Positions 3,568 through 24,692 of a stretch of 64,000 nt of DNA are shown piece after piece. Position 1 is the first letter of the stretch, and each line of letters opens with the position of its first letter. This DNA is from an uncultured Thermoleophilia bacterium. GTDB taxonomy: Bacteria > Actinomycetota > Thermoleophilia > UBA2241. A program made the position numbers and the translations under genes. The notes under the pieces are model-generated. The model had not been told where the DNA came from, searched no databases, and saw nothing but the letters and a program-made list of their open reading frames with translations. Location: contig CAVPRQ010000020.1 in assembly GCA_963707855.1 (NCBI GenBank), positions 114,907 to 178,906 of the forward strand. Reading direction: 5' to 3'.

Positions 3568-3597
3568 GTCTCCGTTTCTCCGTTGATCTCAAGCGGG

Positions 3598-3630
3598 CAG
3601 GGTCGCCGTCCGGAACTGGCGGCGACCCTG
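3598..3630 (+). terminator. intergenic hairpin (attenuator/terminator) between SBP and permease genes
   Basis: An 11-bp stem cagggtcgccg / cggcgaccctg with an 11-nt loop, with no U-tract (common in high-GC genomes). Confidence 0.4.
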
Positions 3631-3657
3631 TCGCGACCTTGGGGAGGTAGACGCGCG

Positions 3658-4623: not shown

Positions 4624-5597
4624 GCGCCGACCACCCGGCTTCCGCGGGCGGACGCCCCGTCGGCGCCCTCGACGTCGGTCTCGACGGGGCTTTCAACGAG
4701 ACTCTCGGGCACGGTCTCGAGTTCCCGCCGGCCCGCGGCAAGCACCGCCGGCGCGAGTGGGTCCAGCTGCCTCTGGACGCGCTCCACTACCGGGTCACGC
4801 AGGTCGGACTCGCGATGTTCCTGTTCATCGTGGCCATCGCCGTGGTCGGTCCGTACATCGCCCCGTATTCGCCCTATGAGTTTGTCACGGCGCCGTACGC
4901 CAAGCCGTCGTCGGTCGCCTGGCTCGGCGGCGACAACCTCGGCCGCGACGTGCTGAGCCGCGTGCTCTGCGGGGGGCGCTCGGTGCTCACCCTCTCGTTC
5001 ATCGCGACGGCTATCGGCATGGTCCTCGGGGTGTCGCTCGGCCTCGTCGCCGGTTACGCTCGGACCGCCATCAGCGAAGTGATCATGCGCGGGCTCGACG
5101 TGATGCTCGCCTTCCCGCAGATCGTGTTCGTGCTGCTGTTGGTCTCGGTGCTGGGGCCGCAGCTCTGGCTCCTCGTGTTGGGCGTGGGCGTCACGCTCGC
5201 GCCGCCCATCGCTCGAGTGGTGTACGGCGTCACGATGGAGGTCAAGGAGCGCGACTTCGTGATGGCGGCCGAGTCGCTCGGCGTCTCGCACTTCAAGATC
5301 GCCTTCACCGAGATCCTGCCGAACATCGTGAGCCCGTTGATGGTGGAGTTCGGTCTGAACCTCACGTTCGCCATCGGGACCATCGCGTCGCTCAGCTTCC
5401 TCGGCTTCGGCATACAGCCGCCAGCGGCCGACTGGGGTCTCATGATCAACGAGAACCGCATCGGCCTGGTCGTCCAGCCGTACTCGGTCTTCGTGCCGGT
5501 GGCGCTGATCGCCATCCTCGCCGTCGGCGTCAACCTCGTCACCGACGGCGTGGCTCACGCCATGATCGGCATAGACCGCGACACGGGGTCATCATGA
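4620..5597 (+). CDS. ABC transporter permease (DppC/OppC-like)
   Basis: 325-aa ORF with multiple TM helices and the permease signature region. Its start overlaps the stop of the upstream permease. Confidence 0.85.
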   Translation: MSADHPASAGGRPVGALDVGLDGAFNETLGHGLEFPPARGKHRRREWVQLPLDALHYRVTQVGLAMFLFIVAIAVVGPYIAPYSPYEFVTAPYAKPSSVAWLGGDNLGRDVLSRVLCGGRSVLTLSFIATAIGMVLGVSLGLVAGYARTAISEVIMRGLDVMLAFPQIVFVLLLVSVLGPQLWLLVLGVGVTLAPPIARVVYGVTMEVKERDFVMAAESLGVSHFKIAFTEILPNIVSPLMVEFGLNLTFAIGTIASLSFLGFGIQPPAADWGLMINENRIGLVVQPYSVFVPVALIAILAVGVNLVTDGVAHAMIGIDRDTGSS

Positions 5598-7810: not shown

Positions 7811-8347
7811 TTGAGCGACAGACAGGCGACCGGGAACAGGACTCGACAACGGGAGGGAGCTTTGGAAGGCGAGACGACACGGGGTGCCGAGCCGAGTTCT
7901 TGCCTGGCGGGAGACCTGACGGCCGCGCAGCGGGATCTGGTGATCCGCCACCTTCCGCTGAATGTCACGGTTTGCGATGAAGAAGGTAGGATCGTGTACT
8001 GGCACGGCGATCTTCGGCGCCTGCTGCAGGCCTCGGGCGTCGAGCTAGCCTTCACGCCCGGCCTCGACGGCGTTCTCGAAGACTGTGATCCGGGATACAT
8101 CGGCCGCCACTACAGCGAATGTCATCCCGCATCCGCGCGTGCCGTCATCGCACGCATCGAGAAGGCCTTTCGGGAGGGCAGCCAGCAGGAGGCGATCTAC
8201 CGGCGCCTGGAAGCCGGCCGGCTGATCCTGGTGCGGTACTGCCCCCTTCGTGACGACCAGGGGACCTACCGCGGCATGATGGAGACGATGCAGGACATCA
8301 CGGACATCCGCCAGATGGACGGCGAGAAGCTCGTCCTCGACTGGTAG
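7811..8347 (+). CDS. PAS-like (PAS_10-type) sensor domain protein, uncharacterised
   Basis: 178 aa. LPLNVTVCDEEGRIVYWHGD...GRHYSECHPASARAVIARIEKAF resembles the PAS_10 family pattern (vDkdgrvryf...GR.v..CHP..S). The N-terminal 40 aa are low complexity, so the true start may be later. Confidence 0.45.
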   Translation: MSDRQATGNRTRQREGALEGETTRGAEPSSCLAGDLTAAQRDLVIRHLPLNVTVCDEEGRIVYWHGDLRRLLQASGVELAFTPGLDGVLEDCDPGYIGRHYSECHPASARAVIARIEKAFREGSQQEAIYRRLEAGRLILVRYCPLRDDQGTYRGMMETMQDITDIRQMDGEKLVLDW

Positions 8348-8469
8348 GCGCGCCGCAGCGTTCCGGCAGCTGCGGTCAGCGGGGGCATCGAGAATGGCCT
8401 CAACGACGACCAGGGACTCCACCACGCAGGGGACCTGACCCTTGCCGCAACGCGGGAGGGTGCTCTAGA

Positions 8470-8575
8470 ATGGATGCATCGTTGTAGCCTACCCGGGTGG
8501 ATACATGCTTCCGCCGGGTAGCCGGCCGGGGACGGCACGAATCGTCGTCAAGAACGGCGCTGGCTGAAGAGAGGG
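8470..8575 (+). promoter_or_regulatory. conserved 5' leader/promoter element (copy B) with core ACCCGGGTGGATAC and a -10-like TAGAAT
   Basis: Homologous to 1693-1795. It has the stem ctacccgg...ccgggtag and shares the downstream segment atcgtcgtcaagaacggcgc. Confidence 0.5.
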
Positions 8576-8633
8576 GGTCAGCGTGACACGCTGTGCGAGG
8601 AGCTTCCGAGGGTCTATCTGGGGAGGTACGGCA

Positions 8634-10431
8634 ATGCGCAGGTTCGTGATCGCAACTATCTTGCTGACGCTTCTGATCGGCCTGGCCGGGGGGGTGGCCC
8701 GCGCCGACACGAGCGCGTCGCCGTCGCCCGGCGCCGAGAAGCTCGTGTTCCGCGTCGGGCAGACGCAGGAGGTCGACAACCTCAACCCGTTCATCGGCCA
8801 GTCGAGCATCACCTACTGAGATCTTCAGCCTCAACTACGACTATCTGGTCGGTACCGCCCCGAACGGCGACCCACGACCGGAGCTGGCCGACAGCTGGGA
8901 GGTCTCCGACGACGGCCTCACCTGGACCTTCAAGATCCACCCCGGCATCAAGTGGCATGACGGAGAGCCGCTCACGGCCCGCGACGTGGCCTTCACCTAC
9001 ATGTACGTGATCGACAACGAGCTCGCACGCCTTCACCTGGAACACGGTCGAACATGAAAGAGGTCGTCGCCGTCGACGACGCCACGGTCGTGTTCCACCT
9101 CTCGAAGCCCAGGGCCGACATGCTGCGCACCGGGGTCCTCATCGTGCCGGAGCACATCTGGAGCAAGGTGCCCGCCGACAAGGTCGAGACGTACCAGGTC
9201 AAGCTGCCGCTCGTCGGCTCCGGGCCCGTTCCAGGTGACCGAGGAGAAGAAGGGCTCGTACTGGGTCATGGAGGCCAACAAGGACTACTTCGGGGGCGCG
9301 CCCACGATCGACGAGGTCATCTTCGAGCGGTACACGAACCAGGACACGTTGGCCATGGACATCAAGAACGGCCAGCTCGACGTGGCTTTCGAACTGCCGG
9401 AGGCGCAGATCGAGGCCCTCCAGAGCGAGCCCGGCCTCACCGCAGACGCCTTCTACAGGATGTACTTCGACTGCATGGCGATGAACGTGTACGACGACCC
9501 GGACTCGCTGGCCAACCCCGTGCTGAAAGACGTCAAGTTCCGTCAGGCGATCGCGTGGGCCATCGACAAGCAGAAGATCGTCGACAGCTGCATGGGCGGC
9601 TACGCGACGGTCGGCGACTCGATCTGCGGCCCCGGCACCGACGGCGCCTGGACGCCGACGGAGGACGAGGCGTTCGGCTTCGACCTCGAGAAGGCGAAGC
9701 AGATGCTCGAGGACGCCGGCTACACGGACACGGACGGCGACGGGGTCCGCGAGGACAAGCAGGGCAAGCCGATCGAGCTGCGGCTCTGGACGCGGACCGA
9801 GAGCCCACCGCAGCAGCGCGCCGGCAAGCTGATCGCCGGATGGTACGAGTCGATCGGCCTCAAGATCAAGCTCAGCGTGATGACCGACGGAGGGATCTAC
9901 GACGGCCTCTACAACTACACGGACAACGGCAAGACCTACGCCCCCGACTTCGACATGTACATCTGGGGCTGGCCCGGCGGCATCGACCCCGAGGGCATAC
10001 TCTCCTGCTTCACCACCTCCGCGATCGAGTGGTGGAACGAATGCTCCTGGTCGAACGCCGAGTACGACGCGCTGGAGAAGCAGCAGATCACAGAGATGGA
10101 CTGGCCGAAGCGCGAAGAGATGGTCCAGCGCATGCAGCAGCTCTTCTACCAGGAAGCGCCCGACATCGTGCTGTACTACCCGGACTCGCTGATGGCCTAC
10201 AACTCGGACAGGTGGGAGGGCTGGGTCCCCTACCCGACCGAGGACGGCATGGTCGTGAACACGCACACCATTGACACGTACATCCAGCTGCATCCCAAGG
10301 CGGCGGCGACCACGAGCTCGGAATCCTCGAATACCGCGCTCATCGTCGGCGCGGTGATCGCGGCGCTCGCCGTGATCGCCATCATCCTGCTGCTCGTGCG
10401 CCGGAGCCGCGGTCGCGCCGTCGAGGAGTAG
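8634..10431 (+). pseudogene. family-5 ABC substrate-binding protein gene, copy 1 of a tandem pair, apparently frameshifted (at least 3 frame changes)
   Basis: An ATG at 8634 gives the signal peptide MRRFVIATILLTLLIGLAGGVARA. The SBP body is split over frames (8583..8819, an unlisted frame, 9054.., 9235..10431). The C-terminus has an S/T-rich linker and a TM anchor, ...ALIVGAVIAALAVIAIILLLVRRSRGRAVEE. Confidence 0.6.
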
Positions 10432-10447
10432 GGCTGACTCAAGGGAG

Positions 10448-10486
10448 CGGGGAGGGGCAGGCGACGGACGGACCTGCCCCTCCCCG
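10448..10486 (+). terminator. GC-rich hairpin after SBP copy 1
   Basis: cggggaggggcagg ... cctgcccctccccg forms a perfect 14-bp stem. An identical element lies after copy 2. Confidence 0.5.
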
Positions 10487-10560
10487 CCCCGTCGTGCGAG
10501 CGGGCGCCCGCGCGTCCGCGCGCGAAGAGTCTCGAAGGGTCTACTGGGGGAGGCACGGCA

Positions 10561-12368
10561 ATGCGCAGGTTCGTGATCGCAACTATCTTGCTGACGCTTC
10601 TGGTCGGCCTGGCCGGGGGGGTGGCCCGCGCCGACACCGAGCGCGTCGCCGTCACCCGGCGCCGAGAAGCTCGTGTTCCGCGTCGGGCAGATGCAGGAGG
10701 TCGACAACCTCAACCCGTTCATCGGCCAGTCGCTCATCACCACTGAGATCCTCCACCTCAACTACGACTATCTGGTCGGTTACGCCCCGAACGGCGACCC
10801 ACGACCGGAGCTGGCCGACAGCTGGGAGGTCTCCGACGACGGCCTCACCTGGACCTTCAAGATCCACCCCGGCATCAAGTGTCACGACGGGGAGCCGCTC
10901 ACGGCCCGCGACGTGGCCTTCACCTACATGTACGTCATCGACAACGAGCTCGCGGCCTATACCTGGAACACGTCGAACATGAAGGAGGTCGTCGCCACCG
11001 ACGACGCCACGGTCGTGTTCCACCTCTCGAAGCCCAGGGCCGACATGCTGCGCACCGCGGTCACCATCGTGCCGGAGCACATCTGGAGCAAGGTGCCGGG
11101 CGACAAGGTCGAAACGTACCAGGTCAAGCTGCCGCTCGTCGGCTCCGGGCCCGTTCCAGGTGACCGAGGAGAAGAAGGGCTCGTACTGGGTCATGGAGGC
11201 CAACAAGGACTACTTCGGGGGCGCGCCCACGATCGACGAGGTCATCTTCGAGCGGTACACGAATCAGGACACCTTGGTCGATGGACATCAAGAGCGGCGC
11301 GCTCGACGTGGCTGTCGATCTGCCGGAGGCGCAGATCGAGGCCCTCCAGAGCGAGCCCGGCCTCACCGCAGGCGCCCTTGACAGGCCGTACTTCGACTGC
11401 ATGGCGATGAACGCGTACGACGACCCGGACTCGCTGGCCAACCCCGTGCTGAAAGACATCAAGTTCCGTCAGGCGATCGCGTGGGCGATCGACAAGCAGA
11501 AGATCGTCGACAGCTGCATGGGCGGCTACGCGACGGTCGGCGACTCGATCGTGCCCCCCCGGCGCGGACGGCGCCTGGACGCCGACGGAGGACGAGGCGT
11601 TCGGCTTCGACCTCGAGAAGGCGAAGCAGATGCTCGAGGACGCCGGCTACACGGACTCGGACGGCGACGGGGTCCGCGAGGACAAGCAGGGCAAGCCGAT
11701 CGAGCTGCGGCTCTGGACGCGGACCGAGAGCCCACCGCAGCAGCGCGCCGGCAAGCTGATCGCCGGATGGTACGGGGACGATCGGCCTCAAGATCAAGCT
11801 CAGCGTGGATGACCGACGGAGGGGTCCTACGACGGCCTCTACAACTACACGGACGACGGCAAGACCTACGCCCCCGACTTCGACATGTACATCTGGGGCT
11901 GGCCCAGCGATATCGACCCCGAGGGCATCCTCTCCTACTTCACCACCTCCGAGATCGAGAGGTGGAACGAGTGCTCCTGGTCGAACGCCGAGTACGACGC
12001 GCTGGAGGATCAGCAGATCACAGGAGATGGACTGGCCGAAGCGCGAAGAGATGGTCCACCGCATGCAGCAGATCTTCTACGAGGAAGCGCCCGACATCGT
12101 GCTGTACTACCCGAAGTCGCTGATGGCCTACAACTCGGACAGGTGGGAGGGCTGGGTCCCCTACCTGACCGAGAACGGCATGGTCGTCTGAACACGTTCA
12201 CACCATTGACACGTACATCGAGCTGCATCCCAAGGCGGCGGCGACCACGAGCCTCGGAGTCGTCGAATACCGCGCTCATCGTCGGCGCGGTGATCGCGGC
12301 GCTCGCCGTGATCGCCATCATCCTGCTGCTCGTGCGCCGCGAGCCGCGGTCGCGCCGTCGAGGAGTAG
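10561..12368 (+). pseudogene. family-5 ABC substrate-binding protein gene, copy 2 of the tandem pair, with at least 5 frame changes
   Basis: It has the same signal peptide (MRRFVIATILLTLLVGLAGG) and roughly 90% nt identity to copy 1, broken into the ORF fragments 10673.., 11160.., 11281.., 11630.., 11805.. and 11885... Single-base insertions and substitutions distinguish it from copy 1. Confidence 0.55.
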
Positions 12369-12385
12369 GGCTGACTCAAGGGAGC

Positions 12386-12423
12386 GGGGAGGGGCAGGCG
12401 ACGGACGGACCTGCCCCTCCCCG
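12386..12423 (+). terminator. GC-rich hairpin after SBP copy 2 (duplicate of 10448-10486)
   Basis: The same 14-bp stem sequence as after copy 1. Confidence 0.5.
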
Positions 12424-12483
12424 CCCCGTCGTGCGGGCGGGCGCCCGCGCGTCCGCGCTGAACAACGACGAAGGAGCTCGACG

Positions 12484-13887
12484 ATGGGCGTGCACGGTGT
12501 CCTGGACGGCGTGGCCGCGAGCCTCGAAGCCGCGGTGGCCGCGTTCGTCAAAGAGAAGCACGTGCCCGGCGTGGCGGCCGGAGTGGTGCTCGGCGACGAG
12601 CTCGCGTGGGAACTGGGCTGGGGCTGTGCGGACCTCGCCACCGGACGCAGGCCCGATGCGCGGACGCCGCACATGATCGCCTCGATGACGAAGCCCTTCA
12701 CCGGTACGGCCATCATGCAGCTGCGCGATCAGGGTCTTCTTGACCTCGACGACCCAGTCAGCCGCCATATCCCGGAGCTGCGGCCCAACGATGCCGCCGG
12801 GCTCGGCAAGGTCACCATTCGCCGTCTGCTCTCCCACGAGTCGGGCCTCATGGGCGAGCCGCCCGGTACGGACTGGGGGACGGCCGACTACGGCACGATC
12901 GCCGAGACGCTCGCGCGCGCCGACGAGATCGCCGCGCGCATCCCGCCCAACATGCAGTGCAAGTACTCCAACCTCGGGTATCAGCTTCTCGGTGAGGTCG
13001 TGGCGCGCATCGCCGGCATGCCGTACGCGGAGTACGTCCAGCAGCGCATCTTCGACCCGCTCGGGATGACCTCGACCAGCTTCGCGCCAGATGCCGAGCT
13101 GGCGTCACGTTGCGCCGTCGGGTATCTGCCGGCGACGTTCGCCGGCGACTTCAGGCCCGCGCCCATCGTCCGCAATTACACCTCCGAGGCCGGCCTCTGG
13201 TCGACGGTGGAGGACCTCGCGCGCTGGATCGGCCTGCAGTTCCGCACGGACGCCGGCGAGCCGGACGGCGCGCAGATCCTGCGCGGCGCCACACTCGCCG
13301 AGATGCAGACGGCGCGCTACCTGAGTGACGCGGCCTGGAACGAAGCCTGGTGTGTCTCGTGGTACGCGACGCGCCGGGGCGAGTCGATCTGGATCGGGCA
13401 CGCCGGCATGCTCGACGGCTTCACCTCCTACGCCGGCTTCCTGCCGGCGCAGAAGCTCGGTGTCATCGTCCTCGTCAACAACGGTGTCGCCGAACCTGCC
13501 GACCTCGCCATGCGGCTGGGTGAGATCGCCGCCGGCGTCGCCCGGCGCCCGCCCGCAACGCCGCTCGCGGCGCCCGTGCCCGACGCCTTGCGCGACTTCC
13601 CCGGGCTCTACATGAACGAGCGCTGGGGCATGGTGTTCCGTATCGAGATCGAGTGGCGCGACGGCGCGCTCCGCGTCGTCGCCCCCGACCAGACGAGTCC
13701 TCCCCCAACGCTCTCGCAGACCGACGATCGCGACGTCTTCATGATCGCGGGCGGCCGTGACGCGGGGGAGACGGCCGTCTTTCTGCGCACCGCCGACGGA
13801 CGCGTGCGCGGCGTTCGCCTCGCGTACTCGACGCTCGCCCGGCTCGAGCCGGTGGAAGAAACGGCCGGCGTGCCCGCGGGGTCCTGA
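12484..13887 (+). CDS. serine hydrolase of the beta-lactamase / class C / PBP family
   Basis: 467 aa with SxxK (ASMTKPFTG), YSN (KYSNLGYQLLG) and HAG (IGHAGMLDG) motifs. Confidence 0.8.
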   Translation: MGVHGVLDGVAASLEAAVAAFVKEKHVPGVAAGVVLGDELAWELGWGCADLATGRRPDARTPHMIASMTKPFTGTAIMQLRDQGLLDLDDPVSRHIPELRPNDAAGLGKVTIRRLLSHESGLMGEPPGTDWGTADYGTIAETLARADEIAARIPPNMQCKYSNLGYQLLGEVVARIAGMPYAEYVQQRIFDPLGMTSTSFAPDAELASRCAVGYLPATFAGDFRPAPIVRNYTSEAGLWSTVEDLARWIGLQFRTDAGEPDGAQILRGATLAEMQTARYLSDAAWNEAWCVSWYATRRGESIWIGHAGMLDGFTSYAGFLPAQKLGVIVLVNNGVAEPADLAMRLGEIAAGVARRPPATPLAAPVPDALRDFPGLYMNERWGMVFRIEIEWRDGALRVVAPDQTSPPPTLSQTDDRDVFMIAGGRDAGETAVFLRTADGRVRGVRLAYSTLARLEPVEETAGVPAGS

Positions 13888-13983
13888 GCGCTGGGAAGGA
13901 TGCGTCAGGAGCCTCTCAGTGCGGGAGGCTGTGGCCGGCCGGGGAGCCGCCAGGCTCTTGGAGGCGTGAAGCGGGGGGTGGAG

Positions 13984-15093
13984 ATGTCCGAGATCGTGAC
14001 CGTGCGGGGATCGATTCGCCCCGATGAGCTGGGTTTCACGAGCATGCATGAGCACCTGTTCGTCCGTGAATCCTATCGGCGCGAGATCTTCAAGAGCAGG
14101 CACCCAGATCCGGCCGAATGGGCGAAAGCCGACAAGGACGAGCTACTCAGTCTGGAGAACCTTGGCGCAGTGCGGCGGAATCCCTACCTCATTCTCGATG
14201 AGACGCGGCTCGATGATGAGGAGCACACGACGTCGGAGGTCGCCGAGTACAAGGCGGCCGGCGGCGCAGCGATCCTCGAAATGAGCGCCCCGGGGATCAG
14301 GATCATGACCGACAGCCTGGAGCGGGTATCGGAAGCGACCGGCGTGCACATCATCGCCTCCACGGGCCTCTACACAGAGCAATCCTGGCCTGACTGTTTC
14401 CGTTCCATGACGTTGGAGCAGTATGCCGACCATTTCCGCAGCGAGCTGGTCGGGGGGATCGGGGAGACTGGGGTAAGGGCTGGTCACATCAAGGTAGCCG
14501 TGGTCGACGAGATAACGCGGCAGCAAGAGACGGTGCTGCGAGCAGCGGCCCGTGTGTCAGCTGAGACCGGCGTCTCGATCACGGCACATCCTGGATTCGA
14601 CATCGGCAACGACGGCCGTGCGATCGTCAGGATCCTCAAGGATGAAGGCATGGATCTTCAGCGGCTCATCCTGGCTCATACGTCGGGATTCTTCATTCGC
14701 ACCTCAGACATGAAAGCCAGGATCCTGTATCCAGAGGCCACATGGGGTCTGACGTTGGACTATGCTGAGCAACTGCTTTCCCTTGGAGTCACCCTCTCGA
14801 TCGACTGCTTCGGCCACCTGTGCGAGTTGGAGTTCCTCCGCGACCGCCAGGAAGAGGATTGGCAGCGATTGGCCGGTCTCGTCGCACTGCTGCAGCGTGG
14901 TTATGCGGAGCAGCTGGTACTCGGCTGCGATGTCTATATGAAGTCGCTGACGCGGCGCTACGGTGGAGACGGCTACCGGCGCCTTCCCGCAGCGATCATT
15001 CCCATTCTCAGGGATTGTGGCGTCTCTGACTGCGCCATTCGACACATGACCGTTGGCAATCCTGCGCGACTGCTTGCCTGGTCAGCAGCCTGA
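13984..15093 (+). CDS. phosphotriesterase-family (PTE/PHP-like) amidohydrolase, possible lactonase
   Basis: An ATG at 13984 gives MSEIVTVRGSIRPDELGFTSMHEHL, the PTE signature GxTxxHEHL. A TIM-barrel metal-dependent hydrolase pattern follows. Local GC (about 58-60%) is lower than the surroundings. Confidence 0.75.
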   Translation: MSEIVTVRGSIRPDELGFTSMHEHLFVRESYRREIFKSRHPDPAEWAKADKDELLSLENLGAVRRNPYLILDETRLDDEEHTTSEVAEYKAAGGAAILEMSAPGIRIMTDSLERVSEATGVHIIASTGLYTEQSWPDCFRSMTLEQYADHFRSELVGGIGETGVRAGHIKVAVVDEITRQQETVLRAAARVSAETGVSITAHPGFDIGNDGRAIVRILKDEGMDLQRLILAHTSGFFIRTSDMKARILYPEATWGLTLDYAEQLLSLGVTLSIDCFGHLCELEFLRDRQEEDWQRLAGLVALLQRGYAEQLVLGCDVYMKSLTRRYGGDGYRRLPAAIIPILRDCGVSDCAIRHMTVGNPARLLAWSAA

Positions 15094-15149
15094 GACGGCG
15101 GAAGACGGGCGGCACGTCTGATGCAACATCGTGGGCAAGGAAGCACAGA

Positions 15150-15563
15150 ATGAAAAGCGAGATCGATTTCTCAGTTTCAGGAGAGTTGCTCCCAGACGAA
15201 CTCGGTGAACTGCTGGATCTGGTAGATCTGCCATTGGCGATATCGTATACACCGAAAGAGTTGGCTCAACTCATCGCCGGCTCTACGGCATATGTCACAG
15301 CGCGCCATTCTGGTGATCTGGTTGGATTTGGCCGCATACTTTCCGATGGTGCGGCCATAGCCTATATCAACGATATGTCAGTACACCCCAAATACCAAAG
15401 ACAGGGTATTGGTCAACGCATTCTGGAGTTGCTCATGCACGCCGTCGGAGACGTCAGTTCGATCTATCTCTATACGAATACCGCCGATTCACTCTATATG
15501 CGCAATGGTTTCCAGCTCTCCGAGAAGCGTCTCTATGTGTATCGCCTGCAAGCCAGGCAATGA
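15150..15563 (+). CDS. GNAT family N-acetyltransferase
   Basis: 137 aa. YINDMSVHPKYQRQGIGQRILELLMHAV is the acetyl-CoA binding motif A (Q/RxxGxG/A). The gene is markedly low in GC (about 50%), suggesting horizontal acquisition. Confidence 0.75.
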   Translation: MKSEIDFSVSGELLPDELGELLDLVDLPLAISYTPKELAQLIAGSTAYVTARHSGDLVGFGRILSDGAAIAYINDMSVHPKYQRQGIGQRILELLMHAVGDVSSIYLYTNTADSLYMRNGFQLSEKRLYVYRLQARQ

Positions 15564-15844
15564 CCGGAACCAACCCTGATCCGTCGTTCGACACTGACCT
15601 CAAGCTCCCGACAGATCGGCTCGACCCCGAGACGGTCGCGGTGCGCGTCGATGTCAAGAGGATCGTCGGCTGTGCAGGAGATGACCGTGCGGAGAGTGTC
15701 GAGGTGGGCGTCCATCGTGGCCTCTGGGTCGGCGGTGACCAATGCGGCGCCGATCTCGGCCTCTCCGCTTCTCTTTCCTGTCGCATGTCGAGATCCGTGG
15801 AATCAAGCACGTAGAATCGGGGCGTCCCTGACTGGAGGTCTGCC

Positions 15845-16906
15845 ATGCCGTTCGACGTAGAGTTCTTCCGCGCCCTCACCCAGGCTCCGGGTCCCACAGG
15901 CTTCGAGGGCCCGGTCATGCGCGTCGTGCGCGAGCGCCTGTCCGCTGTGGCGGAGCCACAGGCCGACGCTTTGGGAAACGTGTGGGCGCGCGTCGGGGCG
16001 GACGGTGACCTCGAGATGGCCGTGGTGGCACACGCGGACCAGATCGGCCTCATCGTCACCTACGTCGATGAGCAGGGTTTCGTCTGGTTCGACCACATCG
16101 GCGGCGTCGATCGCCAGCTCCTGCCGGGTCACGCCGTTGCCATCCACGCAGCCGACGGCGTGGTCGACGGAGTCGTCGGGCGCAAGCCGACGCACCTCAT
16201 CCCGCAAGAGGATCGCGGCAAGGCTCCGGAGCTGCACGAGCAGTACATCGACATCGGGGCGCCAGACAGGGCCGCGGCGCTGGAGCGGGTCGCCATCGGC
16301 GATCCGGTCACGTTCGCGCAGCGTTTCGTCGAGCTTTCGCCGGGTGTGTACGCGACGCTCGCCTGCGACGACAGGGCCGGCGTCTACGCAGCCTGCCGGG
16401 CTCTCGAGGAGCGTGCCGCGGCCGGCAGCGGCGCCGCTCTGACCGCCGTCGCCACGGTGCACGAGGAGACCACGCGCATGGGCGCCAAAGCGCAGCTCCA
16501 CACTCTGAACGCCGATGTGATCGTCGTCCTTGATGGCGACTTCGCCAGCGATCAGCCGGATCTCGACGTCAAGAAGGCCGGTGGAGAAGTCACGATCGGC
16601 GGCGGACCGATCCTGGCGCGCGGCATCAGCAGCAATGAGCGCCTGTTCCATCGCGCCATCGAGGTGGCGCGCCGCGAGAAGATCCCCTTCCAGGTGAAAG
16701 CCATTGGCGGCGGGACTCTGGGCACCGACGCCGACGAGCTGATGGCGGTCGGCGACGCGGCGACCCTGTCGCTGTTCATCCCGATGCGCTACATGCATTC
16801 TCCGTTCGAGGTGGTGCGCGGCGACGACATGGAGGCCACCGTCTCCCTCATTGTTGCGCTGGCCAAGGAGCTGGGCGGGTCCAGTCTCGACGATTTCCGA
16901 GGCTGA
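15845..16906 (+). CDS. M42 family metallopeptidase (FrvX/deblocking aminopeptidase/CelM-like)
   Basis: 353 aa. MPFDVEFFRALTQAPGPTGFEGPV with HADQIG and conserved D/E metal ligands is typical of M42. Confidence 0.8.
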   Translation: MPFDVEFFRALTQAPGPTGFEGPVMRVVRERLSAVAEPQADALGNVWARVGADGDLEMAVVAHADQIGLIVTYVDEQGFVWFDHIGGVDRQLLPGHAVAIHAADGVVDGVVGRKPTHLIPQEDRGKAPELHEQYIDIGAPDRAAALERVAIGDPVTFAQRFVELSPGVYATLACDDRAGVYAACRALEERAAAGSGAALTAVATVHEETTRMGAKAQLHTLNADVIVVLDGDFASDQPDLDVKKAGGEVTIGGGPILARGISSNERLFHRAIEVARREKIPFQVKAIGGGTLGTDADELMAVGDAATLSLFIPMRYMHSPFEVVRGDDMEATVSLIVALAKELGGSSLDDFRG

Positions 16907-16935
16907 CCCCGGAGCGATGCCCGAAGGAGGGCACA

Positions 16936-17769
16936 ATGAAGGTGTTCATCAGTATCGATCTCGAAGGCATCACCGGCGTTTGTGCTGAGGCTCAGACTGA
17001 TCCGGGCACGCCGCAGTACGCTACGGCGTGCGAGTTGATGAGGGCCGACCTCGATGCGGCCCTGGAAGGCTGCCTGACCGCCGGTGCGACCGAGATCGTG
17101 GTCTGCGACGCACACTATCTTGGCACGAACCTCACCTGCCGGGGCCTGCCGCCGCAGGTGTCACTGGCGTCGGGCTACCCTCTCGACGGTCATGCCGACC
17201 TTGGCATGATGCACGGACTCGACGACACCTTCACTGCGGCGGTCTTCATCGGCTACCATGCCATGGCCGGTACCAGGGCCGGCGTGCTGGATCACACGTT
17301 CACCTACGATGTCTACCGGGTGCACATCGGCGAGCATCTCGAAGTGGGAGAGACCGGAGTCAACGCCGGCCTCGCCGGTCGCTACGGGGTGCCGGTGGTG
17401 TTCGTCTCCGGCGACGCCGCCACTGCCGAGCAGGCGCGCGAGTTGCTGCCCGGTGTCGGCACGGCGGTCGTCAAGCACGGGACGTCGCGCACGGCCGCGC
17501 AGCTTCTGCCGCCCGAGGTGACGCGCCCCCTCATCCGCGACGGCGTGGCGGAGGCGCTGCTCGCGGCAGACCGACCGGAGCCACTCGATTTCGCCGATCT
17601 GCCCGTGACCCTTGCTCTGATCAACACGCGCCGCTGCGATGCGGCGGCCCTCTGTCCGGGCACCGAACGGCTCGACGGACGCACGCTGCAGATTGCCGGC
17701 GGCGACTTCCTGCGGACCTTCGCAGCTCTGGAGACCTGCATCGAACTGGCGGCGACGGCACGCGAATGA
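16936..17769 (+). CDS. dppA: D-aminopeptidase, M55 family (DppA-like)
   Basis: 277 aa. The N-terminus MKVFISIDLEGITGV matches the DppA hallmark (MKiyISaDiEGiaGV). Confidence 0.75.
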   Translation: MKVFISIDLEGITGVCAEAQTDPGTPQYATACELMRADLDAALEGCLTAGATEIVVCDAHYLGTNLTCRGLPPQVSLASGYPLDGHADLGMMHGLDDTFTAAVFIGYHAMAGTRAGVLDHTFTYDVYRVHIGEHLEVGETGVNAGLAGRYGVPVVFVSGDAATAEQARELLPGVGTAVVKHGTSRTAAQLLPPEVTRPLIRDGVAEALLAADRPEPLDFADLPVTLALINTRRCDAAALCPGTERLDGRTLQIAGGDFLRTFAALETCIELAATARE

Positions 17770-17865
17770 CCGGCGCCGGCCGCGTCGCTGGCTTGTCGCG
17801 GGCACCGTCGGCGCGTGGTCCGACGATGACCTCCGGCGAGCGGATGTTGCGTAGCCGGTAACGCG

Positions 17866-18054
17866 TCAGCTTCCCGAGCTGAAGACCGCGGGCATGGCCG
17901 CCGAGCGGGCGCGGAGGCACGAGAGGCGCGCCGCGTAGCCGCGGTTGTGACCGGTCAGGGCGCAGAGCTCGTCGAGCATGCGCGTGCGCTCGCGGCTGCG
18001 CGCCCGCCGGTAGCGCTGCGCCATCTCCTTGGTGACCTGCTTCCTCGTTGCCAT
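17866..18054 (-). mobile_element. truncated transposase N-terminal (HTH) fragment, IS remnant
   Basis: The minus strand gives MATRKQVTKEMAQRYRRARSRERTRMLDELCALTGHNRGYAARL..., resembling N-termini of DDE transposase/integrase-core proteins (...ILDEFCxxTGYHRKYAIRLL). It stops after about 60 aa, so no catalytic domain is present. It lies within ORF 17866..18177. Confidence 0.4.
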
Positions 18055-18115
18055 CGACAGGGCCACGTGCCGCCGCCTCTCGATGCGCCTCCGTGACGCT
18101 CCAGAGGTTCGGCAT

Positions 18116-18174
18116 GCTTCGAGTACATTCTTATGTGAGGTAACGGAGCGGTTTCGAGTGCATTCTTGCTGAGG
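18116..18174. repeat. AT-richer imperfect direct repeats (ttcgagtacattcttatgtgagg / ttcgagtgcattcttgctgagg) next to the IS remnant
   Basis: Two approximately 23-nt units about 35 bp apart in a local low-GC patch. They could be IS end remnants or regulatory. Confidence 0.4.
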
Positions 18175-18186
18175 CAAGGCGCTGTA

Positions 18187-18215
18187 TTGACAGGCGCTGA
18201 CCAGCTCCGTAGGGT
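18187..18215 (+). promoter_or_regulatory. sigma70-like promoter of mtbB (TTGACA, 17 nt, TAGGGT)
   Basis: TTGACA at 18187-18192, a 17-nt spacer and TAGGGT at 18210-18215, about 60 nt upstream of the mtbB start. Confidence 0.5.
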
Positions 18216-18236
18216 ATCCACCCGGGTGGTTCTACC
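18213..18236 (+). promoter_or_regulatory. imperfect 24-bp palindrome GGTATCCACCCGGGTGGTTCTACC overlapping the -10/TSS (putative operator)
   Basis: Its reverse complement contains CACCCGGGTGGATAC, identical to the 14-mer at 8491-8504 and 13/14 identical to 1717-1730. Confidence 0.45.
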
Positions 18237-18273
18237 TTCCGGCCGACGATCCAGTGGAGGAGGTGTGCCTGCC

Positions 18274-19674
18274 GTGAGCACGATCATCACGCGAATGGGG
18301 GACGCCGCGACCGTCGAGATGACCCGGGACGAGCTGCACCGGGACATCGTCGAGGGCTCGGAGGCGGCGGCGGCCAAGGGCAAGGTCCCCGTTCTGGAGG
18401 AACGCGAGGTCGAGTACCTGCTCGAGATGTTCTCGAGCCCCAGCCGGATCTGGGGGGTCGAGCGCGGTCACGAGGCGATCCTCACCAAGGACGGTTCCAC
18501 GAACACGATCTACTCCTCGCGTCTCTCGAGCGGGGTCTGCGCTCCCCTTGGCAGGGAGGCGGCCGTCCGCCTCTACGAGACCGCCTTCGCCTTCGACACC
18601 ATGGAGGTCGGTCATACCGACTACTCCGTCAAGCCCGCCAAGTTCCTGGCGAGCCTCGAGGCGATGCACATGGAGCTCCTGCAGCAGGTCACCATCCTCC
18701 CACTCTTCTACGGCTTCATGCCCAATCTCGGTCTGTACTACCGCCCGGACGGGCCGTTCCCGAACCCGTCGGACCTGCTGCCCAAGGGCCAGATCGCCGA
18801 GGCGCGTGCGGCTCAGGAAGAGGCGCTCGTGTCCTGTCGCGACGACGTCGTGTGGCTCAGCAAGCAGATGATCGACGTCGCCGCCGACGGCATCAACTAC
18901 GACACGGTCGCCTCGACCGGCGACGCCGACTTCCTCGCCACCCTCCAGGCGTGCGAGGAGATCACGTCGACGACCGACCTGCCGGTCGAGATCGGGATGG
19001 CGGCCGAGATGGTGCTCGGCTTCCACGGCGAGCTCGAGTACGACGGCGTGCGCCTCGCCGGCCTCTGGCCGCACCAGCAGCTCAAGCTGGTGGAGAAGGC
19101 CGGCGCCTCGATCTTCGGTCCGGTGGTGAACACCAACACGCGCAAGTCGTGCGCCTGGAACGTGGCCCGTGCCGTGACCTTCGTCAAGGCGGTCACGGCC
19201 GAGGCGACGATACCGATCCACCCCAACGTCGGACTCGGCGTCGGCGGCGTGCCGATGTTCGAGGTCGCGCCGGCCGACATGGTCTCGCGCGCCAGCGCGG
19301 CGATGATCGAGATCGGCAAGGCCGACGGGTTGTAGGTGGGCACCGGCGACCCCAGCGGCATGGGGATGGCGCACGCTCTCGCCTCGTCGATGGGCGGCAT
19401 CAAGACCACCGGAGACCTGGTGGCCAGGATGCAGCTCAAGAAGATGAGGCTTCCGGAGGCGAAGCGCTACGTGGCCGGCAAGCTCGGCGTGAGCGAGCGC
19501 GACCTCTCCGACTCGACGGTCATGCGCACGGTGCGCGAGGACCTCGACATCGGCGTCGTCACCGCGGTGCCCGGCATCGCGAAGGGGCTCGAGGCCAAGG
19601 CGCGCATCGCCGAGCTCCTCGACATCCGCATCAACTGCGTCGAGCGGCTCAAGCAGAAGACCGGGCTCAGGTAG
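18274..19674 (+). CDS. mtbB: dimethylamine:corrinoid methyltransferase MtbB with in-frame UAG at 19333-19335 (putative pyrrolysine codon)
   Basis: A GTG at 18274 lies 10 nt after GGAGGAGG. ORFs 18166..19335 and 19336..19674 are in the same frame and separated only by TAG. The conserved MtbB blocks RMGD..., EVGHTDYSVKPAKF, PLFYGFMPNLGLYYRPDGPFPNP, VRLAGLWPHQQ and GPVVNTNT are present. The TAG falls in ...IEIGKADGL-[UAG]-VGTGDPSGMG, the position of Pyl (about residue 356 in Methanosarcina MtbB). Total length of about 466 aa equals MtbB. Confidence 0.75.
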
Positions 19675-19745
19675 CATCAGCGCGACCGGCGGCGCCGCGG
19701 CCTCGGGCCGTGGCGCCGCCGGAGCGCAGACCGGAGGTGACGCAC

Positions 19746-21215
19746 GTGAGAAGGAACCCGCAGGCGGGACGTCACCGGCTGGGCGCCCTCAGCCTGGACG
19801 TCTTCACCGAGGACGACCTCGTCGACATCCACCAGGCGACGCTCGAAGTGCTCCGCGAGGCCGGAGTCTTCGTCGAGGATGCCGGGGCGCGGCAAGTGAT
19901 GGCCGCCGGGGGTTGCGAGGTCGACGAGGAGAGCCGGACCGTGCGGATCCCGGCCTACGTGGTCGAGGCGGCGGTGCGCAGCGCGCCCTCGACGCTGCTG
20001 CTGGCCGCCCGCGACCCGGCGAACGACTTCGTCATGGGGCCGGGTCGCGTCGGCTTCACCAACTTCGGCGAGGGTATCAAGATCGTCGACGTCGAGACCG
20101 GCGAGCTGCGCGAGCCGACGAAGAAGGACGTCGGCGAGTCGGCGCTCGTGGTCGACGCCCTGCCCGAGATCGACGTCTACGAGCGCGCCGTCGGGGCGTC
20201 CGACGTCCCGCAATCGGTGGTCCCGGTCCACAATGCCGAAGCCGCCTTCACGAACACGGGCAAGCACATCTTCATCGGACCCGGCAACGGCGAGCTGCTC
20301 AGGCGCATCGTCGACATGGGGGCGGCGATCGCCGGGGGCATGGCCGCCTTTGCCCGTCGCCCGCTGATCTCGTTCAACACCTGTCCTGTCAGTCCGCTCA
20401 AGCTCGTCCAGGACACCTGCGAGATCATCATGGGGGCGGCTCGGACGGGCACCGCGGTCAACATCCTCTCCATGGCGATGGCCGGCGGCTCGTCGCCGGT
20501 GACGCTCGCCGGGACGATGGTCACGCATAACGCCGAGGTCCTTGCCGGCGTGACGCTCTCGCAGCTCACGAAGGAGGGCGCGTCCGTCGTCTACGGCAGC
20601 TCGACGACGGCGATGGACCTTCGTCTCGCCGCCGCCTCGGTCGGCAGCCCCGAGTGCGCTCTCATCAGCGCCGGGGTCGCCTGTCTGGCGCGCTTCTACC
20701 TGCTGCCGAGCTGGGTCGCCGGGGCGTAGGGCGACGGCAAGATCGTGGACGCGCAATCCGGCCACGAGAAGACGCTCACAGGCCTACTGCCGGCGTTGGC
20801 AGGCGCCAACCTGATCTACGGCCTGGGGATGCTCGAGTCCGGGATGACGTTCGATTTCGGCCAGCTGGTGCTGGACCACGAGTTCGCGCGCTTCATCAAG
20901 CAGGCGGTCGCCGGGATCCCGGTGAGCGACGAGACACTGATGGTGGAGGAGATCAAGAAGGTAGGCGCCTTCGGCGACTTCCTCAGCCTCGACAGCACGA
21001 TGAAGTACATGCGCGGACAGTCCCAGCCGAAGCTCATCGACCGGCGCGTGCGCGACGAGTGGAAGGCGGCCGGCTCGACGGACGTGTACCGGCGCGCCCT
21101 TGACGAGGCGCGCCGGATCCTCGCCGAGCACCGGCCGCCGCCGCTGCCCGACGGCGCCGCCGACGAGCTGCGTCGCATCGTCAGTGAGACCGAGCGCGAG
21201 TTGGCGACCGACTGA
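19746..21215 (+). CDS. mttB: trimethylamine:corrinoid methyltransferase MttB with in-frame UAG at 20727-20729 (putative pyrrolysine codon)
   Basis: A GTG at 19746 lies 9 nt after GGAGG. The reading frame of 18852..20729 continues in-frame into 20745..21215 across TAG. MttB-family sequence includes LSLDVFTEDDL, NILSMAMAGGSSPVTLAGTMVTHNAEVLAG and ...LPSWVAGA-[UAG]-GDGKIVDAQSGHEKTLTGLLPALAGANLIYGLGMLE. The amber is at the Pyl334-equivalent position. Total length of about 490 aa equals MttB. Confidence 0.75.
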
Positions 21216-21240: not shown

Positions 21241-21284
21241 CGTGAGAGGGGCGGGGCGCCCGCGGGCGCCCCGCCCCTCTCACG
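21241..21284 (+). terminator. perfect 44-nt palindrome after mttB (intrinsic terminator-like)
   Basis: cgtgagaggggcggggcgcccgcg / cgcgggcgccccgcccctctcacg sits 26 nt after the mttB stop. Confidence 0.55.
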
Positions 21285-21342
21285 TGCGGCCGCCGACGCC
21301 GGCGGGCGTCGATGCTCGTGCCCGCCTGCGCCGTCACGCTCA

Positions 21343-21428
21343 CTCGTCGTCCGCGGCGCAGCACCTTGCTGACCTCGATGCCCTTCGGCACGGTCAGGCC
21401 GAGGCCGCGACGGAGCAGGTTCGAGACC
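21343..21428 (-). repeat. approximately 85-bp duplicated fragment of the 3' end of the FAD-oxidoreductase gene (partner copy at 23199-23285)
   Basis: About 95% identity to the 3' terminus of the 23198..24692 gene (encodes ...VSNLLRRGLGLTVPKGIEVSKVLRR). It forms a direct repeat flanking the LarA-like gene. Confidence 0.7.
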
Positions 21429-21699
21429 ACCTGCACGTTCGACAGCCCCTGCGCGATCGGCGGTGGTATGATCACGAAACTCGCATGGCTTCAATAAGCT
21501 GCGCGATTCTTGTTCGGCGCGGGATCGTCTGTCGGCTTCGCTGACGGAACGCTCGATCGCCGACGAGGACGGGGTGGCGACGCCGACGACGGCGGCCGAA
21601 CGCGAGACCATGCAGCGCGAGCGCTGCGCGGAGCGGGGCTGCAGGCGCCCGGCGGCTGAACGGCCCGTCGGGGCGCGCGAGGCAGGAAGAGGAGAATCG

Positions 21700-23067
21700 A
21701 TGTCCGGGACGATGGACGTGGCGGCGAGCGTGCAGCTTGGGCTGCCGTACGGCGACGGCGAGGTGCGCTTCTCGCTGCCGCGGGCCAACCTGGTGGGCGT
21801 GATCGAAGCCCGCGGCGGCGGCGCGTGCGAGCCGAGCGACCTCGACGGCGACGCGAGCCGCGAGGCGCTGACACGAGGCCCTGCGGCGGGTGATGCGCAC
21901 TCGGTCGCGGCCGGCCCGACGCCGGCGGAAGAGGAGGCCGAGATACGGCGCGCCCTGGCGGAGCCGATCGGCGCGCCGCGCCTCGGCGAGCTCGCAGCTC
22001 AGGCGTCCTCGGCGGTCGTCGTCGTCAGCGACGTGACGCGGCCGGTCCCCTCGTACAAGTTCCTGCCCGTCCTCATAGAGGAGCTGCGGCCGCTGTTGCC
22101 CGAGGCGATCACGATCCTGTTCGCCCTCGGCAGCCACCGGCGCCAGACGCCCGCCGAGCAACTCGCCCTCGTCGGCGAAGAAGTGGCGGCGAGCGGCGTG
22201 CGCCTTCTCGATTTCGACCGGGAAGACTGCGTCCCGTACGGCACGACGAGTCGCGGCACGCCGCTCGCCGTCTCCCGCACCTACGCCGAAGCGGACCTGC
22301 GGATCTGCACCGGGGGCATCGACTACCACGCCTTCGCCGGGTTCTCCGGGGGGTCCAAGTCGGTCCTCCCGGGCGTCTGTGCCTCGGCGTCGATCCAGGC
22401 CAACCACGGCATGCTGCTCGAGGACATGGCGCACGCGGGCGTGCTCGAGGGGAACCCGGTGCGCGAGGACATGGACGAGGCCGGCGCCATCATCGGCATC
22501 GACTACCTCCTCAACGTCCTCATCGACGACGAGCGCCGCATCATCGGCGCCGTGGCCGGCGAGTTCCTCGCGGCGCACCGCGCGGGCTGCGCCCTCCACG
22601 ACGCGCGCTGCGACTTGCGCATCGACGCGCGGGCCGACGTGGTCGTCGCCTCCCCGGGCGGCGCGCCCAAGGATATCGACCTCTACCAGGCGCAGAAGAC
22701 GCTCGACAACGTGTCCGACGCGGTCCGTGACGGCGGCGTCGTCGTGCTCGCCGCGCGCTGCGACGACGGGCTCGGCCACCCGGTCTTCGAGCGATGGATG
22801 GCGGAGATGGAGGAGCCGGCCGATCTCGTCGAGAGGATCCGTCGCGAGTTCGTCGTCGGCGGGCACAAGGCCGCGGCGATCGCCGGGCTGCTCATGCGGG
22901 TCTCCCTCTTCCTCGTCTCCGATCTGCCGGACGACGTCGTGGCCGACATGCGGATGACGCCGTTCGCCACCGTCGACGACGCCGTCACCGCGGCGCTGCA
23001 GCGCTGCGGTGACGGCGCCGGCGTGCTCGTCGTGCCGCACGGTGTCCGGGTGACCGTGCGGGGTTGA
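21700..23067 (+). CDS. LarA-like (lactate racemase family, nickel-pincer cofactor dependent) protein
   Basis: An ATG at 21700 follows gaggag. LarA N-terminal domain motifs VSDVTRPVP, ALGSHRRQT and GGSKSV are present, with a DUF2088/LarA-like fold. This is the C-terminal 455 aa of ORF 21574..23067. Confidence 0.65.
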   Translation: MSGTMDVAASVQLGLPYGDGEVRFSLPRANLVGVIEARGGGACEPSDLDGDASREALTRGPAAGDAHSVAAGPTPAEEEAEIRRALAEPIGAPRLGELAAQASSAVVVVSDVTRPVPSYKFLPVLIEELRPLLPEAITILFALGSHRRQTPAEQLALVGEEVAASGVRLLDFDREDCVPYGTTSRGTPLAVSRTYAEADLRICTGGIDYHAFAGFSGGSKSVLPGVCASASIQANHGMLLEDMAHAGVLEGNPVREDMDEAGAIIGIDYLLNVLIDDERRIIGAVAGEFLAAHRAGCALHDARCDLRIDARADVVVASPGGAPKDIDLYQAQKTLDNVSDAVRDGGVVVLAARCDDGLGHPVFERWMAEMEEPADLVERIRREFVVGGHKAAAIAGLLMRVSLFLVSDLPDDVVADMRMTPFATVDDAVTAALQRCGDGAGVLVVPHGVRVTVRG

Positions 23068-23197: not shown

Positions 23198-24692
23198 TCA
23201 GTCGTCGTCGCGGCGCAGCACCTTGCTGACCTCGATGCCCTTCGGCACGGTCAGGCCGAGGCCGCGACGCAGGAGGTTCGACACGGGGTCGGGCTTCTTG
23301 CCCTCGTCCTCGAGGATCTCGTAGCGCTCGATCGCGGAGCGCATGGCGCGCGCGCCGACGAAGCGGAACGGCTCGGGTGGCAGGTAGCTCGGCGGCTCGG
23401 AGACGAGCGGCGAGCGCGCGTGGTCGTCGTCGCGTTCGAGCGCGACGGAGGCGAGCGTGCGGCCGATGAGGTTGCTCGGCGCGACGCCGTTGCCGCCGTA
23501 GCCGATCCCGTAGTGGATGTTGCGCGCCTTGCCCAGGGTGCCGACCCAGGGGAAGCCGTGCTGCGTGCGCTCGACCGGGCCGCCCCAGCGCCACTCGACG
23601 GTGAGGCCGCCGGTGGCGGGGAAGAGGGCGCGCATGTCGGCGACGATGCTCTCGGCGTTGGCCTTGTCGTGGAAGTGGCTGGGGATGACCCGCCCGGCGT
23701 AGCCCAGGCGGCCGCCGCCGCGGCCGAAGACCAGCCGGTCGTCGGCCGTGCGCTGACCGTAGTGGACGGCCGTGCGGCCGTCGGCGAAGGGCCGGCCGCG
23801 CTGCCAGCCCATCTCGTCGAGGATCGCGGCGGAGGGCGAGGTCGCGACGATGTGCGCCGGGATCACGAAGACGGTCCGGCGCAGCTCCGAGACCTGGGCC
23901 GTCCACGCGCCGCTGGCGAGGACGACCTTCTGCGCCGTCACGCAGCCGGCGGGCGTCTCGACGACCGCCGGCGCCGACCGGCGCAGGCGCGTCATGGGGC
24001 TCGCCTCAAAGACCCTGACGCCGGCCTCGACGGCCAGCCGGCGCAGGCCCTGGGCGAGGAGCGCCGGCTGGACGCCGCCGGCCGTCTTGAGCACGACGCC
24101 GCCGAGCGCCCGGGGCGAGCCGCAGGCCGCCTTCGCCTGCTCCGCGTCGAGCAGCTCGACGAGGTGGGCCGTCCCGTGCTTCTCGCGCTCGGCGGCGTCC
24201 TCCTCGAAGCGCGCCATCTGCGCCTCGGAGAGGGCGATCTCGAGCCCGCTGTTCATCACGAAGTCACAGTCGAGGCCGCCCTCGGTCACGGCGCGCCCGA
24301 TCTCCCGGACCCCCTCGAGCGATCTGCTCGACCAGCCAGCGGGCGGCGTCGGCGCCGAAGCGCGCGACGAGCGACGGCAGGGCGTCCTCCCAGCCGTTCA
24401 CCCAGCCGCCGTTGCGGCCTGAGGCGCCGAGGCCGCAGACCGTCTGCTCGACGAGCACGACGTCGGTGTCCGGCGCCAGCCGCTTGACGTACAGCGCCGT
24501 CCACAGGCCGGTGAAGCCGCCGCCGACGATGCAGAGGTCGGCGTGGATCGCGTCGGTCAGCGGGGTGACGTCGGGGGGCGTCCAGCGCTCGTCGCCCCCG
24601 CACCAGTAGATGCCGTCCCTGGGCTGATCCGACGTTGCGACCTGGCCGACCGACATGACGCACCTCCGACGCTGATGACCGTTCGCGTGCAA
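23198..24692 (-). pseudogene. FAD-dependent oxidoreductase (PuuB/OrdL gamma-glutamylputrescine oxidase-like), apparent frameshift near 24270-24300
   Basis: Two overlapping minus ORFs (24264..24692 and 23198..24289) together give a DadA-family protein (IVGGGFTGLWTALYV, GASGRNGGWV). The frame break could be an assembly indel. Confidence 0.6.

Follow-up and report, generated by a model that had tools for sequence, protein, structure and literature searches.

Genes and Features of the Locus

The stretch of DNA that was analyzed, here called the window, comprises 64,000 nt with a GC content of 70% and stems from an uncultured Thermoleophilia bacterium; the names carried by homologues likewise point to Thermoleophilia. 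Related loci that were fetched from other genomes for comparison carry L-numbered names (e.g., L001, L088, and L130). The genes named in this section are all encoded on the plus strand. SBP1 (1921-3567) encodes an SBP_bac_5 protein with a TAT signal and is followed by the genes for two permeases (3583-4623 and 4620-5597) and a fused double ATPase (5594-7390), all of which were assigned with Pfam. Based on these matches and on orthologous operons that carry the putative operator described below, the whole region 1921-7390 is a candidate regulated operon for a Dpp-like ABC importer. A gene for a PAS-domain protein (7811-8347) lies between this operon and two extra SBP_bac_5 copies, SBP2 (8634-10431) and SBP3 (about 10561-12370), which were recognized by Pfam and self-comparison. 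They go back to a tandem duplication (8609-10521 versus 10536-12458, 95.2% identity), and a predicted promoter and putative operator precede SBP2 only. Both copies are frame-broken and could be pseudogenes or the result of long-read indel errors. In the related MAG locus L085 the permease genes are likewise fragmented. The region 12484-17769 encodes beta-lactamase-fold, PTE, M42, and M55 hydrolases.

The next gene is mtbB (18274-19674), which has an in-frame TAG at 19333, followed by mttB (about 19677-21215) with an in-frame TAG at 20727. Both were identified with Pfam, and Rfam detected the elements PYLIS_2 in mtbB and PYLIS_3 in mttB. A 28-nt inverted repeat directly past the mttB stop codon (21241-21284) may be a terminator. 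Further downstream a LarA-like gene (21574-23067) is followed by leuA, leuCD, leuB, and ilvE and then by dnaE. The LarA-like gene is flanked by an 85-nt direct repeat (21340-21424 and 23198-23281, 95% identity), which may be the scar of an insertion or duplication.

Upstream of the mtbB promoter there is an imperfect direct repeat, TTCGAGT(A/G)CATTCTT..TGAGG (18118-18140 and 18153-18174), and the region with this repeat stands where related genomes have a tetR gene. Between the M55 peptidase gene and mtbB, the stretch 17840-17913 (plus strand) matched the general tRNA model weakly, with 26.6 bits versus a gathering score of 29. ARAGORN did not detect a tRNA at this position, and the match is probably spurious. 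The minus strand upstream of mtbB (17621-18115) was also considered as a transposase fragment, which was rejected because the stretch had no Pfam match and tblastx gave low-complexity noise only.

A Recurring Motif and Its Predicted Promoters in the Window

The initial annotation had reported that a 14-mer, ACCCGGGTGGATAC, recurs in the window. An exact copy was found at 8491-8504 on the plus strand, and also the 13/14 variant at 1717-1730 is present and reads ACCCAGGTGGATAC on the plus strand. The inverted copy upstream of mtbB exists as well, but its true coordinates are 18214-18227, 2 nt away from the reported 18216-18229. The core had been described as containing a palindrome at all three sites; CACCCGGGTG is present at mtbB, but it is absent from both SBP sites. 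Only the mtbB site of the window has the palindrome in its full length of 12 bp (CCACCCGGGTGG, 18218-18229). The sequence at the SBP sites is CTACCC(G/A)GGTGG, i.e., CTACCCGGGTGG at 8489-8500 and CTACCCAGGTGG at 1715-1726, and in both the left half-site is weakened (CTACC, T for C).

Together with their flanking positions, the three putative operators are AT-CCACCCGGGTGG-TT at mtbB (18216-18231), GC-CTACCCGGGTGG-AT in the SBP2 leader (8487-8502), and AC-CTACCCAGGTGG-AT in the SBP1 leader (1713-1728). Their scores with the position weight matrix (PWM) described below are 23.4, 20.0, and 24.3, respectively, and a site identical to the SBP1 operator occurs in L009 and L130. An 11-mer, CCGCCGGGTAG, which equals the core minus one central base, lies 14 nt downstream of the SBP1 operator (1740-1750) and is present once more at 8512-8522. 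This element may represent either a second, degenerate operator or the 3' arm of a clade-specific hairpin in the leader.

At mtbB the predicted promoter (18187-18215, plus strand) consists of TTGACA at 18187-18192, a spacer of 17 nt, and TAGGGT at 18210-18215. The operator core starts 2 nt past this -10 box and thus covers the predicted transcription start, in agreement with the operator-like position at the mtbB -10 region and start that had been noted before. The predicted promoters of SBP2 (8442-8471, plus strand; TTGCCG, 18-nt spacer, TAGAAT at 8466-8471) and SBP1 (1667-1696, plus strand; TTGCGA, 18-nt spacer, TAGAGT at 1691-1696) contain the -10-like hexamers downstream of which the two SBP copies had been located. 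The distance to the operator core is indeed 17 nt at SBP2 and 18 nt at SBP1. A promoter scan of the window with a 9-of-12 rule recovered only the SBP2 promoter (9/12 matches), while those of SBP1 and mtbB fall below this rule and are predicted because other loci share them. The SBP1 promoter is kept in L001, L006, L009, and L130, and the mtbB promoter architecture is kept in orthologous tetR-mtbB intergenic regions.

The three recurring sites are thus present, but the copies at 1717 and 8491 are not independent. They share a homologous promoter/leader block of about 170 nt and therefore count as a single event with a paralogous copy. Three matches with at most two mismatches to ACCCGGGTGGATAC did not occur in any of 100 dinucleotide-shuffled sequences. 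The probability of about 1e-3 that had been given for a chance recurrence did not hold, because it leaves out the look-elsewhere effect. Even with the known duplication excluded, the GC-rich window contains 356 maximal exact repeats of at least 14 nt, and thus the recurrence of the 14-mer within the window alone is only suggestive. For this reason, the significance of the motif rests on other genomes.

Conservation of the Motif in Related Genomes

An alignment of SBP1 homologues was used to fetch 80 metagenomic loci, which together with the window comprise 497 kb. In this set the 12-mer palindrome occurred 8 times exactly and 16 times with at most one mismatch, while Markov simulations yielded 0 and about 2.3 occurrences, respectively. 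A PWM was made from the sites in this set, and mtbB-based and tetR-based loci were then added, resulting in about 170 related loci in total. The PWM scan of these loci revealed 96 distinct sites with the consensus A-N-CCACC-YR-GGTGG-R-T. This is a palindrome of 16 bp, of which the previously reported 14-mer is the right-hand part, and the inverted repeat suits a symmetric dimer. CCACC and GGTGG were 93-100% invariant over the 96 sites, a value that is partly imposed by site selection because the PWM was trained on core-containing sites.

Targets of the putative operators were mtbB (42 sites), tetR (27 sites), SBP_bac_5 genes (19 sites, plus one upstream of a transporter permease gene), Pyl-mttB (5 sites), Aminotran_3 (4 sites), and MtbA-like URO-D genes (2 sites). 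Orthologous SBP_bac_5 operons with the operator were found in more than 15 loci, and the putative mtbB operator is kept in the independent genomes L136, L096, and L088. All PWM matches of the window and of the SBP loci adjoin a predicted promoter, and none of the genes examined was seen to contain a copy of the motif.

The motif could in principle have arisen by chance in GC-rich DNA, or its copies could belong to a dispersed repeat of the REP/MITE type without a regulatory role. The many exact repeats in the window and the paralogy of two of its three copies are in line with this explanation. It is opposed by the strong enrichment over the simulations, the fixed distance to promoters, and the lack of sites above the cut-off in control loci (see below). 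In addition, conservation is confined to 12-16 bp and the flanks are unrelated, whereas copies of a REP or MITE would be similar over a wider region. Enrichment, control loci, and promoter geometry effectively refute an origin by chance or as a dispersed repeat, and its probability is negligible.

Positions of the Sites Relative to the Predicted Promoters

Almost every site lies behind a conserved predicted promoter of the type TTGACA-16/18-TAnnnT, in one of four fixed positions. In the first class, which comprises mtbB, Pyl-mttB, Aminotran_3, and URO-D genes, the core begins 2-4 nt past the -10 box and extends across the predicted start (38 sites, including 18218 in the window and the sites in L136 and L096). 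At the tetR promoters of L094-L135 the core begins 8-13 nt past the -10 box. The distance is largest for the SBP class with 15-22 nt, e.g., at 1715 and 8489 in the window. In the last class the core lies inside the 17-nt spacer between the -35 and -10 boxes, as seen for site 1 of L043 and for mtbB in L088-L093, L132, and L133. At all four positions relative to these predicted promoters a bound protein would block RNA polymerase, which is the typical geometry of a repressor.

A second operator 105-145 bp upstream of the promoter-overlapping one was observed in seven tetR-mtbB loci (L100 5844, L101 5794, L105 5788, L107 5752, L113 2558, L114 5798, and L121 5829). No own promoter was detected for the second operators of these seven loci. 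They could allow cooperative binding or looping.

DNA Operator Versus RNA Element

A common dimeric regulator and an RNA hairpin had both been suggested by the initial annotation. A function in the RNA would mean that the element is a 5'-terminal stem-loop or a riboswitch-like part of the SBP 5' UTRs, which are 145-270 nt long, and that it controls stability, termination, or translation. The position of the SBP motif, at about +10 to +30 of long and partly conserved leaders, fits this possibility. Furthermore, the window motif (CTACCC..GGTGG) can pair with the downstream CCGCCGGGTAG, and in L001 and L003 this pairing contains changes from U.G to C-G and from U-A to U.G. However, this hairpin of the window SBP leaders is clade-specific, its changes are one-sided only, and it may be a by-product of two tandem operator-like sequences.

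Further results argue against a role of the RNA. Rfam searches, both at the gathering threshold and with E values up to 10, found PYLIS_2 and PYLIS_3 within mtbB and mttB only and no match at the motif sites (regions 1700-1920, 8470-8640, and 18190-18275). The same three regions do not fold more stably than shuffled sequence (z = +0.40, -1.00, and +0.18). Over the 96 sites the core never covaries and only 21 have a Watson-Crick pair at position ±7; moreover, a stem of 5 bp cannot close over a loop of 2 nt. Sites inside the -35/-10 spacer or across the predicted start cannot be transcribed intact, and the motif at mtbB is inverted relative to its SBP-like twin in L035. An RNA element is thus very unlikely, and of the two earlier suggestions the regulator, which is in accordance with recurrence, geometry, and gene linkage, was retained, while the hairpin was abandoned based on Rfam, folding, and covariation.

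Because the core is invariant without compensatory change, the flanks are unpairable, and some sites are not transcribed as a whole, the element is best read as one that is recognized as double-stranded DNA by a symmetric protein. Judged from the sequences compared here, the palindrome is very probably a protein-bound DNA operator.

The SBP1 leader itself has a length of about 220 nt (1697-1920) and is conserved in the orthologues L001-L009 and L130 (nhmmer E values as low as 1e-68). Within it lies a G-rich box, CGGCCAAGGGGGTGGTGAG (1783-1801), which recurs in most operator-bearing SBP leaders. The SBP1 leader has no match in Rfam. A uORF in this leader (1796-1924, with a GTGA start/stop overlap) was rejected, because the lengths of the leader indels are not divisible by three and the reading frame stops early in L001.

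A TetR-Family Protein Is the Likely Binder

In L088 and L035 a gene for a TetR-family protein directly precedes the sites. An alignment of these two proteins was used to search one genome per species, and loci were taken by protein similarity alone. The search yielded 48 TetR orthologues with 55-100% identity, and 47 of them came from Thermoleophilia, Actinomycetes, or Actinomycetota. Sites were present in 45 of the 48 loci and missing in 3. A site was located at most 250 nt upstream of tetR in 27 loci, at most 450 nt downstream in 39 loci, and at both positions in 24 loci. The gene after tetR was mtbB in 36 cases and Pyl-mttB in 7 cases, together 43 of 48. The search also returned 32 unrelated TetRs of other phyla, and their loci served as controls. 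None of these loci had a site above a score of 14, and only two weak matches were seen (12.7 and 13.1).

The L088 gene (9207-9896) encodes an N-terminal TetR_N domain (PF00440) and shows a weak match to TetR_C_6. The protein matched 57 TetR-family PDB sequences as well as TetR-family models of NCBIfam, and the best PDB match (E = 1.6e-10) covered the helix-turn-helix only. The helix-turn-helix does not vary among the orthologues, including the copy in L130, and reads TLExVAAEAGVNKASIRYNFGNKAGL even where the overall identity is only 55%. The BetI model (TIGR03384) aligned over residues 32-207 with 43.6 bits for the L088 protein and 42.0 bits for the L130 protein. These scores are far below the curated cut-off of 201.3, and thus the protein was rejected as a BetI orthologue. 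Taken together, the TetR-family protein encoded at the related loci is likely to be the binder of the operator.

The palindrome could also be the DNA operator of another protein, either a divergently encoded Lrp/AsnC regulator of the SBP operons or some other factor; the adjacency of tetR would then indicate membership in the regulon and not the identity of the binder. Operator-bearing SBP promoters do have a divergent gene of the Lrp/AsnC type upstream of them in L010, L034, L038, L039, L044, L065, L085, L090, and L092, and the window and L004 have operators without a tetR nearby. Many operator-bearing SBP loci with such a divergent gene have no tetR visible on their short contigs. However, the same AsnC subfamily is found beside SBP genes without the palindrome (L011-L014), while in the 24 loci with operators on both sides of tetR the surrounding ±5 kb are mostly devoid of AsnC. 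Moreover, close to the AsnC promoter the regions between AsnC and SBP have conserved AT-rich boxes of their own, and these presumably resemble typical Lrp sites more than the palindrome does. Lrp/AsnC as the binder was rejected on this co-occurrence (AsnC without the site in L011-L014, and the site without AsnC in most tetR-mtbB loci), and a binder other than the TetR-family protein is on the whole improbable.

The Lrp/AsnC regulator has a length of about 190-210 aa and a conserved N-terminal extension, and it is encoded divergently from the SBP operons of L010, L034, L038, L039, L044, L085, L090, L092, and L011-L014. It is probably a second regulator that is specific for SBP operons and adds a further layer of control.

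With regard to the TetR-family protein, the earlier statement that no regulator gene is present in the window was confirmed, as the 64 kb do not contain a tetR. Neither the vicinity of mtbB nor any other part of the window gave a significant colinear match when it was searched for tetR or its remnants. In the closest tetR-mtbB locus, L136, the homology to the window starts only at position 18256; upstream of it the promoter and operator architecture of L136 is nevertheless retained in the window. L130, a Thermoleophilia MAG contig, is 95-97% identical to positions 1-3229 of the window. On this contig a LarA paralogue is followed by a tetR gene, the stop codon of which lies about 2.0 kb to the left of the equivalent of window position 1. 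No operator of its own was found at this tetR. Given the location of this tetR beyond the left edge, the three window operators most likely answer to a regulator whose gene lies just beyond the window.

The Proposed Regulon and Its Significance

The unit that would be canonical for Thermoleophilia is [operator]-tetR-[operator]-mtbB(-mttB), with further putative operators at the promoters of SBP_bac_5 ABC importers, omega-aminotransferase genes, and MtbA-like genes. In the proposed mechanism a homodimeric TetR-family repressor, with a C-terminal domain that is distantly BetI-like, would bind to the 16-bp palindrome. Without effector it would occupy operators that overlap the start (the mtbB class, including 18218 in the window), lie in the -35/-10 spacer, or, in the tetR and SBP classes (with 1715 and 8489 in the window), are located at about +10 to +30, and it would thereby block binding or promoter escape of RNA polymerase. 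The repressor would come off upon binding of a small molecule, for which a methylated amine is plausible, and the uptake system, the Pyl-dependent DMA and TMA methyltransferases, and tetR itself would be turned on together.

What the compared sequences show is a conserved motif at fixed positions relative to predicted promoters and tightly linked to tetR; that a protein binds to it, represses transcription, and responds to a given effector is inferred from them. A methylated amine is a reasonable guess for the effector, based on the composition of the regulon and the BetI-like domain. The more specific proposal that the TetR-family protein senses methylated amines (DMA, TMA, or a quaternary-amine precursor) is tentative and has somewhat less than an even chance to be correct.

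The initial annotation had connected a Dpp-like ABC transporter with the methylamine methyltransferases, and this connection gained weight, as the palindrome was found at promoters of these gene groups across dozens of independent Thermoleophilia genomes and the gene neighbourhood points in the same direction. Independent of the motif, SBP homologues adjoin mtbB, mttB, non-Pyl MttB, and corrinoid-protein genes, and therefore the comparison supports a functional tie of the importer to methylamine demethylation. In L004 (contig_22769), L085, and L088, SBP-ABC operons are clustered with genes for non-Pyl MttB-family proteins, corrinoid proteins, peptidase S15, BKACE, thiolase, and dehydrogenases. 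The composition of these clusters hints at the catabolism of a quaternary amine (e.g., carnitine or a betaine) rather than at peptide uptake.

Pyl-type mttB and mtbB are expressed by uncultured Actinobacteriota MAGs in soils and peat (PMC10805028). The literature that was searched contained no account of this operator and regulator or of the bacterial regulation of Pyl-encoding mtbB and mttB. The present analysis offers a testable unit that consists of an operator sequence, a candidate repressor, and a list of targets, and it connects the ABC importer with the demethylation of methylamines. Defined probes together with an expressible protein open a route to the inducer and thereby to the true substrate of the pathway. 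If the TetR-family protein were a sensor of methylated amines, widespread soil Thermoleophilia would couple an SBP_bac_5 importer of the 'peptide/nickel type' to pyrrolysine-dependent methyltransferases. This would reveal a previously unrecognized substrate class for the SBP_bac_5 transporter family and a dedicated regulon for the bacterial Pyl-dependent use of methylamines, and the pair of operator and TetR could then serve as a methylamine biosensor.

Comparison with Known Regulatory Systems

Leader RNAs and riboswitches at SBP genes of ABC transporters share with the SBP operons described here a long 5' UTR (145-270 nt) with the motif near the 5' end of the leader. They differ from the present case, in which there is no Rfam family and no covariation and copies are found at untranscribed positions. 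Lrp/AsnC regulators encoded divergently from transporter operons are a second known arrangement, and such a gene is present at the same SBP operons in at least nine loci. In contrast to those systems, the Lrp/AsnC gene is here unlinked to the palindrome and absent from most tetR-mtbB units.

The closest resemblance is to TetR-family systems such as TetR/tetO, QacR, AcrR, EthR, and AmtR. The N-terminal TetR_N helix-turn-helix is shared, and so is a short palindromic operator that overlaps the core promoter or lies directly past it. Also the location of the regulator gene beside its target with an operator in its own promoter is alike, which implies autoregulation, and by analogy ligand-induced release would be expected here, too. 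In contrast to these systems, the operator is GC-rich (CCACC-YR-GGTGG) and new, the tetR gene is usually co-directional with and upstream of its target instead of divergent, and no characterized orthologue exists, the best PDB match being confined to the helix-turn-helix. The putative regulon, with Pyl-dependent mtbB/mttB, SBP_bac_5 importers, an aminotransferase, and an MtbA-like gene, is likewise new.

Among known repressors, the choline-responsive BetI, which controls genes for betaine synthesis and transport, shows a weak full-length similarity that includes the C-terminal domain. Metabolism and transport of methylated amines are controlled by BetI and, putatively, also by the TetR-family protein described here, while the targets and the group of organisms differ. 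TetR-family repressor/operator regulons are well known as such, and the novelty lies in the operator, the regulator, and the regulon.
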